A stretch of 63,699 nucleotides of DNA, filler included, from Nitrospirae bacterium CG2_30_53_67 (GTDB lineage Bacteria; CG2-30-53-67): the NCBI GenBank assembly GCA_001873285.1. It is 6 parts of 6 records of this genome, joined end to end, with 100 filler letters (N's around TTAATTAATTAA, not from the genome) between each part and the next. Parts side by side here need not be neighbours in the genome. Positions count along the whole stretch, not along the records: positions 1 to 8,757 come from MNYV01000159.1; 5 more parts are not named here. One strand, given 5' to 3'. Each line of letters begins with the position of its first letter. The stretch's first letter is position 1. Below, in pieces: positions 6,488 through 49,633 of the stretch. The notes below the pieces were generated by a model that saw nothing but the letters and a program-made list of their open reading frames with translations, did no database searches and was not told the origin of the DNA. Position numbers and translations under genes: made by a program.

Positions 6488-6847
6488 TTGCATCTCCCCT
6501 GAATTTATAATATCTTTCCACTTGTAAAGCCTCTCTGGTAGAAGCTTAAACGTATCGTATCGCAGCCGCCATGAACGGGAGACCAGCCCATGCCTTTTGA
6601 TTCTTGCAAGGAAAATATCCGGTGAAACAGGTCATTATCAAAAACCCTGTCATCTGGTGAATTAGGTAACAACGTAACGAGGACTTACTTGCCTTCATTG
6701 TGATAATCAAAGTATGAAAGGAAGTCAAAGGCCTATTAAGGTTCTCATAATTATGAAAACATCAAATAAGAATTTCGCCTGCCCCCTTTTTTCAAGCGGG
6801 GAAACGCAAGGTAGACAATCTTTTTGATCTTTCTCCTAACCATTCTC

Positions 6848-6945
6848 CTCCCCTTTGTAAGGGGAGGTCAGGTGGGGTAGGAAAAATGCAGATCTACCTC
6901 TTCTTCCCCCTCCTTACAAAGGAGGGGAACCGAGGGGGGGATTTT
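6848..6945. repeat. CCCC(T)TT...AAGGGG palindromic REP-like repeat pair
   Basis: Same motif class seen at 1328-1362, 7199-7245, 7613-7657 and 49544-49633. Confidence 0.6.
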
Positions 6946-6958
6946 GTATAAGACATAA

Positions 6959-8590
6959 GGGGACATCAAGAAGGGCTTCGTGTACAAGCGCGTGCCGCAC
7001 GTAACGCTCAAGTCCATTGCGAACAACCCGGACATCAAAGAGGGGATGAGCCGCGAGGAAATCGACGCTGCTATTGCTCGGCATGCGGATACTGAGACGC
7101 TTTATGATCAACCGTACGAAGACAACAAGCGCATCCGCGTGACAGGGCCTTTCACTGTTGTGAGTCTTTCGCCTCACAGAACGCTGGCGCCGGAAGGCAA
7201 ATCCCCCCAACCCCTCTTTGGCAAAGGGGGGCAGAGGAGGGATTCGAGCATAGGTGTACATGGAGATTTTATTCACATGATCCTCGACAATCTTAAAAAA
7301 GCGGGCGTTCAGAACACGGTCAAGAATGAGCGATTGAATTTCGACAGGCTGGAACCCTATGCGGGTGAGTGGCTGCACTTTGCCGGGGAATATACGGAGT
7401 ATCCCCCTCACCCCGGCCCTCTCCCACGGAGGGGAGAGGGAATTACGAAGCGGGTTGCGGTCTGCCTGGGGCCGGAGCACGGGACTGTCGGGCCGGAGCT
7501 GATCAAGGAAGCGGCCAAGGAGGCGCTTCGGGGCGTAGGGTTCGATCTTCTCGTTGTCTGCGGCTTTGCCTTTGATGCTCATGCCGGAGAGACAGCCAGG
7601 CAGTTTACACCGACCCCCCTCAATCCCCCCTTACGAAGGGGGGAAGATAAGGGGGGTGGACAGATCATAGCCGAAGAAGAGAAGCACTATGGGAAATTGC
7701 CGATCCTGCTTGCGCGCATGAATCCTGACCTGACCATGGGAGAGGATCTTCTGAAGAAGACCGGCGCAGGAAACCTCTTCATGGTCTTCGGCGAACCGGA
7801 TATTGCAGTGAGCAGTGGGCTGTGGTTAGTGAGCAGCAATGGAAGAAAGGTGGTGCAGCTTGACTTCGCTCAAGAATTATCGGGACTTGCAGGTTTGGCA
7901 GAAATCAATCGAATGGGTGGAAGCGATTTACAACGCTTCAAAGAACTTTCCGCAGGACGAGCGGTTCGGTCTGACCAGTCAAGTCAGGCGAGCGGCAGTA
8001 TCGGTCGCAGCGAACATAGCCGAGGGCGCGGAAAGGACATCAACAGGGGAATTCCTTCAGTTTCTGGGGATAGCGAGGGGATCTCCGGCGGAAGTGGAAA
8101 CGCTGCTGATTTTGGCGGAGCGTCTCGGGCTTCTGCGGACGGAACAACGGGACACTCTGCTCGCACAGGCGTCGGAGATCGGGAAAATGCTCGTAGGGTT
8201 GCAGCGCTCACTGCGATCCAAGCACTGACGCCATCTGATTTTCCGCTGCACACTGCCCACTGCGCACAGGCCACTATCTTCGGCGTTGACGTGTACGACC
8301 CGACCACGGGCCAGATACGGAGTTCTTCAACGGATGACATCGCCTGCTGGTTCATAGACACGGACTACAACGGCGAGAGCTTCTTTGTCCGTCATGCCTA
8401 CTTCACCGGCGCTGATGAGCCCTACGAGAAGCTTAAACGGGCGCTTCGCTCCGAAGTGGACGAGGCCGCCTGGTCCATGCTTTACTCCACCATGAGTCAG
8501 CCCTTCGACCCACCCGCGACCGGCAAGATCGCCGTGAAGGTCATTAATCACTATGGGGATGAAGTGCTGAAGGTCTATGAGGTGAAGTGA
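6959..8590 (+). pseudogene. C-terminal part of a type III Mod-like site-specific DNA methyltransferase; 5'-truncated, with multiple in-frame insertions
   Basis: GDIKKGFVYKRVPHVTLKSIANN, RVTGPFTV.SLSPHR, GNLFMVFGEPDI, GVDVYDPTTG..DIACWFIDTDY, IAVKVINHYGDEVLKV; TAA at 6956-6958 and no DPPY or FxGxG motif. Confidence 0.7.
7839..8228 (+). CDS. Four-helix-bundle protein (23S rRNA-IVS / bAvd-like), nested in the +1 frame of the methyltransferase ORF
   Basis: YRDLQVWQKS, FPQDERFGLTSQVRRAAVSVAANIAEG, FLGIARGS.AEVET; possible TTG start at 7860 behind AAAGGTGG. Confidence 0.9.
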   Translation: MEERWCSLTSLKNYRDLQVWQKSIEWVEAIYNASKNFPQDERFGLTSQVRRAAVSVAANIAEGAERTSTGEFLQFLGIARGSPAEVETLLILAERLGLLRTEQRDTLLAQASEIGKMLVGLQRSLRSKH

Positions 8591-8757
8591 TGTCGGCAAA
8601 ACGCACTATAAACGATACTGAAGAGCTGGCTGCCCGTATTTTGGACTTTTTTGAAAAGAAGAATATTGACGTGGCCGTTCGGCGTGACCGTTATGGCGTA
8701 TCGATCATTGAGCGAACGGGTGGACACCCTGTCGCAAGATTCAAGATATGCGGAAAG
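8587..8757 (+). CDS. Hypothetical protein, truncated by assembly gap
   Basis: ORF overlapping the methylase stop and running into Ns. Confidence 0.5.
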
Positions 8758-49543: not shown

Positions 49544-49633
49544 TTCCCCCCTTTGGAAAAAGGGGGTTAGGGGGGATTTTTTCACATGCACGACCAGAAA
49601 TCCCCCTCCATTCCCCTTTTGCAAAGGGGGACT
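49544..49633. repeat. Inverted pair of CCCCCTTT..AAAGGGGG palindromic repeats
   Basis: Seen directly in the sequence. Confidence 0.7.

Follow-up and report, generated by a model that had tools for sequence, protein, structure and literature searches.

A four-helix-bundle gene nested out of frame in a Mod DNA methyltransferase gene, with both reading frames apparently kept by selection

In this study, we analysed a 63,699-nucleotide stretch of DNA from Nitrospirae bacterium CG2_30_53_67 (assembly GCA_001873285.1), here called the window, in whose first part (record MNYV01000159.1) a gene of the 23S rRNA intervening sequence (IVS) protein family lies nested, in the +1 frame, inside the C-terminal fragment of a Type III-like Mod DNA methyltransferase gene. 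The comparison of related loci shows, at the level of sequence, that selection maintains both frames, that it is purifying on the nested protein, and that the arms of an inverted repeat around the insert keep pairing. We consider it likely that the insert is a mobile cassette of the IVS type, seated in the tip of a beta-hairpin in the C-terminal domain of Mod, which is tolerated because ribosomes read through it, and that selection keeps both frames. An earlier note on this DNA had proposed that an IVS-like element had entered a protein-coding gene and had been selected to keep both frames; this proposal is strongly supported by an open host frame, a purge of T-ending codons at stop-prone junctions and a switch between frames in the pattern of variability.

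Two reading frames through one insert

As the note had described, the host frame is unbroken on the + strand from 6959 to 8590 (536 codons counted from the GTG at 6980). A search of 1.84 billion representatives with the host open reading frame (ORF) returned 4248 relatives, and 104 of the 150 best cover the site of the insert (46 do not). In these, the spacing between the conserved blocks on either side is 15–39 residues, mostly 16, in 94 cases, 153–162 in nine and 86 in one; in the window, 160 residues lie between FGEPD (7787) and GVDV (8282). The uninserted hairpin measures 15–16 residues at this site, which confirms the expectation of about a dozen in the note. Where near-identical flanks with and without the insert were compared (representative P0002 with P0017, and the window with P0004), the hairpin turn is replaced and both strands are kept. 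Nine representatives match the window without a break through the insert, and their host-frame segments align nearly gapless.

In the +1 frame, the nested ORF at 7839–8228 matches PF05635 with an E value of 4.2e-39 (133.5 bits against a cut-off of 33.8, profile positions 1–105 of 106) and TIGR02436 with an E value of 1.8e-37 (127.9 bits against a cut-off of 24), so that the gene read there by eye is a member of a known family, from which membership its product would be predicted to fold as a four-helix bundle. The TTG at 7860 aligns with a conserved ATG of 60-odd relatives, and an alternative start, the ATG at 7839, would give 129 codons. At the place homologous to the Shine–Dalgarno-like AAAGGTGG the consensus of the relatives is GGGAGG. 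Contigs in four of four independent DNA runs span 7357–8418 or more with no joint; the insert is therefore not a misassembly, a doubt that the note itself had raised. A second candidate, a genuine methylase domain overlain by a spurious +1 ORF, is ruled out by the PF05635 matches and by the frame switch in variability described below.

The arrangement is not confined to the window. We scanned one genome per species with an alignment of host-frame insert segments as the query and used the best 80 of 139 relatives. These 80 loci span more than 12 phyla and come from Gamma- and Alphaproteobacteria, Desulfobacterota, Planctomycetota, Chloroflexota, Verrucomicrobiota, Nitrospirota, Poribacteria, Latescibacterota, Acidobacteriota, Gemmatimonadota, Calditrichota, Bacillota and others. 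FGEPD and GVDV stand in one frame in 73 of them, with no host stop in 71 of the 73 and a length of exactly 516 nt in 66; the +1 frame holds an open stretch of 93–155 codons in all 73, and the third frame has 2–14 stops. A conserved ATG begins the nested ORF, and PF05635 matches 71 of 71 nested proteins. A tblastn search of a plasmid collection with the host-frame insert gave no match.

Both frames are intact in 68 of the 80 loci; the note had let its proposal hang on the existence of other nested cases, and to these are added five from a search with the nested frame and one more, L087, all described below. The 12 exceptions were inspected. They comprise a host nonsense codon (L007, L019); a nested gene broken while the host stays open, by stops (L006, L036) or by a 99-nt deletion (L072); a frameshift together with a nested stop (L066); a deletion (L071); truncation at the arm (L077, L080); a contig end (L052); and two loci, L068 and L078, whose 5' arm lacks exactly 7 nt, so that the host frame is shifted. 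In the latter two (L068:4001-4495 and L078:3009-3503) the 5' arm is one heptamer short, and the upstream mod frame enters the nested frame and ends at two stops, which could reflect decay or a slippage switch.

Selection on the host frame is seen most directly in the codons of the nested gene. In this relative frame, host stops arise solely at T|AA, T|AG and T|GA junctions, that is, where a nested codon ends in T, and they can be removed synonymously; only this relative frame would therefore work. In the other alternative frame, which is open in none of 72 relatives analysed (minimum two stops), stops would arise from xTA and xTG codons, which are not synonymously removable in a Leu-rich protein. 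The note had observed that no T-ending codon falls where it would stop the host, and in the window none of the 31 stop-prone junctions indeed has T at the third position, compared with 16 of 98 other junctions (Fisher p 0.009). When the nested gene was permuted synonymously, the host frame was open in 1.0% of 20,000 trials, and of 177 segments of 130 codons taken from other long ORFs of the window, 5 are open in the corresponding frame. Across the family, we compared 70 nested genes with 67 free-standing relatives, a contrast that the note had put forward as a check. Third-position T occurs at 2 of 2067 stop-prone junctions of nested genes (936 of 6465 at other junctions), whereas free-standing relatives have it at 274 of 1933 (1493 of 6434 at others). 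The host-like frame is open in 68 of the 70 nested genes against a permutation expectation of 0.115, and in 6 of the 67 free-standing genes against 0.016.

The column entropies of the alignment tell which frame governs which part. Host position 3 is the most variable codon position in columns 0–90 and 450–516 (flanks, arms and lead), nested position 3 varies most in columns 120–440, and in columns 90–120 all three positions are almost fixed. The entropy at nested position 3 is 0.62–0.67 bits in the first 20 codons and 1.1–1.5 further on; free-standing relatives lack this dip and are flat at 1.5–1.9. An AlphaFold2 model of the window ORF, built with a 66-row alignment in which conservation of the other frame may inflate its confidence, predicts the arms as long paired strands (residues 269–284 and 424–440, pLDDT above 90) and host-frame helices at 294–326 and 398–414 (pLDDT 76–97), those over the first 20 nested codons (7860–7919) with pLDDT above 90. 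The middle of the insert (residues 329–395) is modelled as disordered, as are the segments with short palindromic inserts (residues 51–93 and 210–232). This might suggest that the ends of the host-frame insert are real, selected structure and that the middle only has to stay open. A fold search of the model against the PDB gave nothing at an E value of 0.001 or better (best 7f6l_B, E 6.5e-3, TM 0.10), and a predicted complex of the C-terminal part of the host with the nested protein found no support.

Pairing arms, relatives and movement of the cassette

The note had seen complementary heptamer arms able to form a stem, and this stands. Positions 7808–7824 are complementary to 8251–8267 over 17 nt (88%), and the arms close the minimum-free-energy fold of 7795–8280 (z −3.4; none of 100 shuffles as stable). 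In a 70-row DNA alignment, columns 20–39 and 463–482 are paired in 81.3% of cells compared with 23–50% in slid registers, and compensatory changes on both sides occur in 9 of 20 arm pairs, one of them being, for example, CG in 19 rows, UA in 16 and UG in 14; the covariation score was reached by none of 500 shuffles. Cognate arms form only modestly more stable duplexes than non-cognate arms (−48.8 against −45.4 kcal/mol), since the arms are alike across the family, and these pair counts, together with the differing heptamers of other host families, are better evidence than duplex energies. Those families carry heptamers that are different yet complementary: L087 and L093 have GTTTTGA/TCAAAAC, whereas L095 and L117 have GCAGTAT and its complement. 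Among metagenomic relatives with both flanks available, 33 of 68 have a flank-to-flank duplex with z of −3 or lower, and the identity at lag 7 in their flanks is 0.40 and 0.38, compared with 0.26 at other lags. Flank duplexes and lag-7 identity together indicate that heptamer arms are a general feature of these four-helix relatives.

We also scanned metagenomes with the nested proteins, a search in which the host frame plays no part. It yielded 80 loci with 72 analysable ORFs, of which five are nested in long ORFs, all with the host frame open. Two (L092, L093) lie in a paralogous Mod at the homologous hairpin, two (L095, L117) in the PglX of BREX systems (PDLC02527) between motif I and an HGIDID block, and one (L128) in a DrmMI/PglX-like methylase between YYTP and motif I. 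The sixth case, L087, is a second PF05635 copy in a genome that also holds the main arrangement. The paralogous Mod proteins L087:3-2186 and L093:3-2234 contain, in the host frame, a complete DUF559/Vsr-like endonuclease domain (PF04480, E 1e-37 to 1e-39), which sits in another variable loop with repeat peptides of the PLP.GEG type on its flanks.

The host-frame translation of the insert has also found its way into profile libraries. The PADLOC PglX profile PDLC02522 matches, at about positions 265–440, the inserts of the window (E 2e-9), L095, L117 and L128 as read in the host frame, from which it follows that the insert is common in that PglX subfamily. The label 'PglX' that this profile would place on the Mod fragment of the window is spurious, as it is the insert translation that is matched.

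In a tree of the four-helix-bundle proteins, those nested in Mod form one clade (support 85), and the other nested proteins fall into three more groups among free-standing genes, which requires four changes, at least three of them forced. On the evidence of this tree, relatives of the cassette are shown to have entered other defence methyltransferases independently. The metagenomes yielded 67 free-standing relatives. Such free-standing cassettes have housekeeping genes on either side, for example nuoC/nuoD, MacB/FtsX permeases, sigma-54 two-component pairs and enzymes of the tricarboxylic acid cycle, and at most about 5 of 118 ORFs flanking free-standing relatives are defence-like or mobile. 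In L106, L113 and L144, free-standing cassettes lie between nuoC (Complex1_30kDa) and nuoD (Complex1_49kDa), and the host-like frame is open over the element only, for about 150–160 codons.

The cassette also appears to move between mod genes. When trees were built from the host flanks without the insert, presence or absence of the insert had to change 18 times over 128 rows (FastTree) and 12 times over 52; at least 3–5 changes are forced, and a single clade of inserted hosts is rejected by the approximately unbiased (AU) test (p 2.6e-10, log-likelihood difference 377). The window flanks themselves are closest to an uninserted protein, P0004 (81%). A host clade comprising the window, L003, L004, L012, L055 and L056, had been defined by the Tyr of GVDVY ahead of any insert tree. 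The host tree recovers it as monophyletic (support 100); on the insert tree its members are scattered, with six changes, and constraining them together costs 144 log-likelihood units (AU p 2.8e-5). This conflict means that losses alone are insufficient, and that mod lineages have exchanged the cassette, perhaps together with short stretches of flank, at this one site; homing and ordinary recombination would both be compatible with the trees.

The truncated host gene in the window

One feature that the earlier note had missed is that the host gene in the window is a 5'-truncated remnant, only the C-terminal 40% of a methylase. Homology to Mod begins at 6947, right after a block of small C/G-rich hairpin repeats (6844–6945), and in-frame stops lie upstream (TAA 6956, TAG 6878), the first of them at the position of a Glu in the homologue P0003. 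The best full-length relatives, P0003 and P0004, are 72–75% identical to the window host; used as tblastn queries they recover only residues 573–929 and 530–935, respectively, in the whole window, and the catalytic PF01555 domain is therefore missing from it. In agreement with this, PADLOC PDLC03632 (MTase_III) matches the host ORF with an E value of 1.8e-86 over C-terminal profile positions only, up to 982, and profile searches with the host ORF gave no Pfam or NCBIfam match, PF01555 included. Full-length inserted relatives, with ORFs of 954–1073 aa, do match PF01555, and have UvrD-like helicase, NYN, Schlafen/AlbA_2 and AAA_15/21 genes as neighbours. Since the host is truncated, the arrangement in the window is a relic of an intact dual-coding mod gene, in which the nested gene is still intact.

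The features of this region are collected in Table 1. Over 6947–7819 the window carries about 45 codons more than P0003. A family of short polypyrimidine/polypurine hairpins (CCCCTYY..loop..RRAGGGG) occurs at 6844–6945, 7199–7252, 7400–7447, 7598–7675, 169–189 and 49547–49629; the three copies within the methylase fragment are translated as PLFGKGG, PLPRRGEG and PLRRGEDKGG, and in-frame peptides of the PLP.GEG type in homologues of other phyla (P0010, L087, L093) resemble them. At a 30-nt repeat (6843–6873), contigs from four of four independent groundwater or aquifer DNA runs end or start, there is an alternative upstream contig, and independent assemblies branch. Around 8410–8548, contigs of independent runs break at 8434–8463 and 8549–8578 with clustered third-position differences, a pattern that points to variant strains living side by side or to the communities having the conserved C-terminus of the methylase in a second copy. 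A short ORF at 8587–8757 overlaps the methylase stop (ATGA), has no Pfam match and runs into N from 8758. Rfam searches up to an E value of 1 gave only sub-threshold miRNA and snoRNA look-alikes on small hairpins.

Table 1. Features of the nested arrangement and its surroundings (window coordinates)
Feature	Position	Strand	Basis
Host frame, C-terminal fragment of Type III-like Mod DNA methyltransferase	6947..8590	+	tblastn, PADLOC profile
Whole insert, ~152 host codons in place of ~6–8 codons of beta-hairpin turn	7811..8266	+	comparison of near-identical flanks
5' arm, four imperfect heptamers (GTGAGCA GTGGGCT GTGGTTA GTGAGCA), host frame VSSGLWLVSS	7808..7837	+	inverted repeat I7; fold
Shine–Dalgarno-like AAAGGTGG upstream of nested start	7846..7853	+	read from sequence
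Nested four-helix-bundle gene (23S rRNA IVS protein family), 122 codons from TTG	7860..8228	+ (+1 frame)	PF05635, TIGR02436
Double-constraint zone, first 20 nested codons, synonymous sites conserved too in nested copies	7860..7919	+	entropy; AlphaFold2
3' arm, complementary heptamers, host frame PLHTAHCAQ	8245..8267	+	inverted repeat; fold; covariation
Short C-rich/G-rich hairpin repeat block at 5' break of methylase fragment	6844..6945	.	inverted repeats I2, I4; hairpins
Three short palindromic inserts read in host frame	~7199–7252, 7400–7447, 7598–7675	+	hairpins; boundaries by eye

Explanations, comparisons and meaning

According to the explanation that we favour, ribosomes on mod would run straight through the insert and add about 146 residues, the arms lengthening the hairpin, about 45 residues near each end possibly being ordered and the middle forming a disordered Gly/Ser/Arg-rich loop. 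The nested gene would be translated in the +1 frame of the same mRNA from its own Shine–Dalgarno sequence and start. The cassette would be primarily a selfish passenger, which persists because the host gene is not broken by it, and it would survive in genes where it lands in a tolerant surface hairpin and where its sequence keeps the host frame passable; this explanation does not require a functional link with methyltransferases, although there may be one.

Several points weigh against this explanation. Pure read-through gives no role to a stem that is conserved and covaries, and that all recurrent nested cases are in DNA methyltransferases may point to a functional link rather than tolerance. 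With a host that lacks the catalytic domain and has stops upstream, a functional arrangement in the window itself is not supported by its sequence, and a promoter/terminator scan found no sigma-70-like promoter on the + strand (and no terminator). The query behind the 80 genome loci was a host-frame peptide, which favours open frames; the unbiased sample is small, namely six nested cases that came from Pfam matches or from the nested-frame search; and, the sequences being related, cell counts overstate the number of independent events. Finally, it is selection only that argues for the translation of either frame. As for the stem, it could act in the mRNA as an RNase III site or as a regulator of nested translation, or at the DNA level as a hairpin for movement.

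A wider reading, which we put forward tentatively and on balance lean against, is that heptamer-armed four-helix-bundle cassettes are a distinct mobile class which colonizes protein genes by two-frame coding, repeatedly in defence DNA methyltransferases (Type III Mod, BREX PglX and DrmMI-like hosts), with homing-like spread from allele to allele at a single site and a possible switch in the arms. The four-helix-bundle protein would possibly act on the arm hairpins, and loss or gain of a 7-nt arm unit may shift the host frame and turn the methylase off; two of the 80 loci show such a loss of 7 nt from the 5' arm.

Alternatively, the nested protein might be no selfish passenger; it could have been domesticated to work with defence methyltransferases or to regulate them, its expression being coordinated with theirs. 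This would fit with purifying selection on the nested gene in more than 12 phyla, with the finding that six of six further nested cases lie in DNA methyltransferases of defence systems, and with the insert being common in the PglX subfamily matched by PDLC02522. However, it seems unlikely to us, as 94 of the 104 Mod representatives covering the site are without the insert, the insert tree conflicts with the host tree, relatives that stand free and have the same arms are found in housekeeping operons, and genomes with a nested copy hold only 1–3 family members, in varied contexts.

The note had left room for skipping of the insert at the RNA or ribosome level, and we regard such removal as highly improbable. 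RNase III would cut the stem, or ribosomes would hop over it when closed, and Mod would be made without the loop. In its favour, the stem is conserved with compensatory changes, G–U pairs are common in it, folding is slightly more stable for the + strand (−48.75 kcal/mol) than for the − strand (−47.38 kcal/mol; p 0.02), and the architecture matches that described for the IVS of Coxiella (PMC4990558). Skipping, however, predicts no selection on host-frame stops or on length, whereas 71 of 73 loci are open, 66 have exactly the same length and T is purged; selection on stops and length therefore disfavours it. An RNase III cut without re-ligation would moreover destroy the mod mRNA. The gap bypassed in T4 gene 60 is 50 nt, and a bypass of 456 nt would be about nine times as long.

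That the open host frame is a mere by-product of composition can be dismissed: the window region has 57% G+C with several other frames open, G+C-rich genes with few T-ending codons could stay open without selection, and 3 of 15 free-standing relatives with a G+C content of 0.56 or more are open in that frame, but the permutation and control counts of the window alone speak against it, and the family counts of open frames and of T at stop-prone junctions refute it.

Compared with known systems, the cassette is closest to the ORF-bearing IVSs of 23S rRNA, which occur in Coxiella burnetii, Leptospira and others. The Coxiella element is 428 nt long, has an S23p ORF in the loop of a 28-bp stem and is cleaved by RNase III (PMC4990558). 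Shared with these are the PF05635 family, a size of about 430–460 nt, an ORF in the loop of a long terminal-inverted-repeat stem at a hairpin tip of the host molecule, and a patchy distribution that suggests horizontal spread (PMC4990558). Unlike them, our insert has a protein gene as host, is not simply excisable, keeps the host frame open and in register and has coding arms; no rRNA family of Rfam matched in 6700–8750, even at E values up to 1. Rickettsia palindromic elements and similar repeats are in-frame inserts in protein genes which are tolerated as surface loops and carry no gene. The host ORF of the window itself has three short inserts of this sort. They resemble the cassette as selfish palindromic DNA within genes that is read as an extra surface loop, and these elements differ in that the latter encodes a conserved protein, two proteins coming from the same 366 nt.

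Like the overlapping genes of viruses and bacteria, the insert has two frames on one stretch, both selected, and a zone of double constraint. The term 'true overprinting' used in the note is thus apt as regards selection on both frames and not as regards a de novo origin, since the nested gene has free-standing relatives and arrived by insertion: a pre-existing gene was inserted, none was born, and the host frame mostly needs only to stay open. With inteins that carry homing endonuclease genes the cassette shares the features of a gene-bearing parasite, one conserved site, patchy alleles and a phylogeny in conflict with that of the host; unlike in inteins, the nested gene is out of frame, no endonuclease is known, protein splicing is neither needed nor indicated, and no Hint or intein domain was found in the host ORF (0 Pfam families). 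The homology of PF05635 to Avd, the accessory protein of diversity-generating retroelements, is stated in PMC10053308. In our case the similarity is distant and below cut-offs (PF22296 bAvd, E 8e-7, 29.9 against 40 bits; NF033474, E 1.5e-7, 31.6 against 80), and the nested protein, unlike Avd, does not reach the equivalog cut-off of NF033474. Full-text literature searches, with subscription journals outside their scope, yielded no paper that describes a methylase with a PF05635 gene nested in it, or the heptamer arms of such a gene.

On the practical side of annotation, the insert is taken up into methylase models by gene callers and by profile libraries, as in the PADLOC PglX profile, and the nested gene may be missed. 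The arrangement is a clear natural example of bacterial DNA that has coded in two frames over the long term and bears signatures that can be measured, and it links an unexplained family, PF05635, and bacterial heptamer repeats to defence methyltransferases. Two ways are known by which a gene-bearing selfish element can live in an essential or addictive gene, namely excision at the RNA level, as for rRNA IVSs and introns, and protein splicing, as for inteins; read-through, with the codon choice of the passenger policed against host stops, would be a third.

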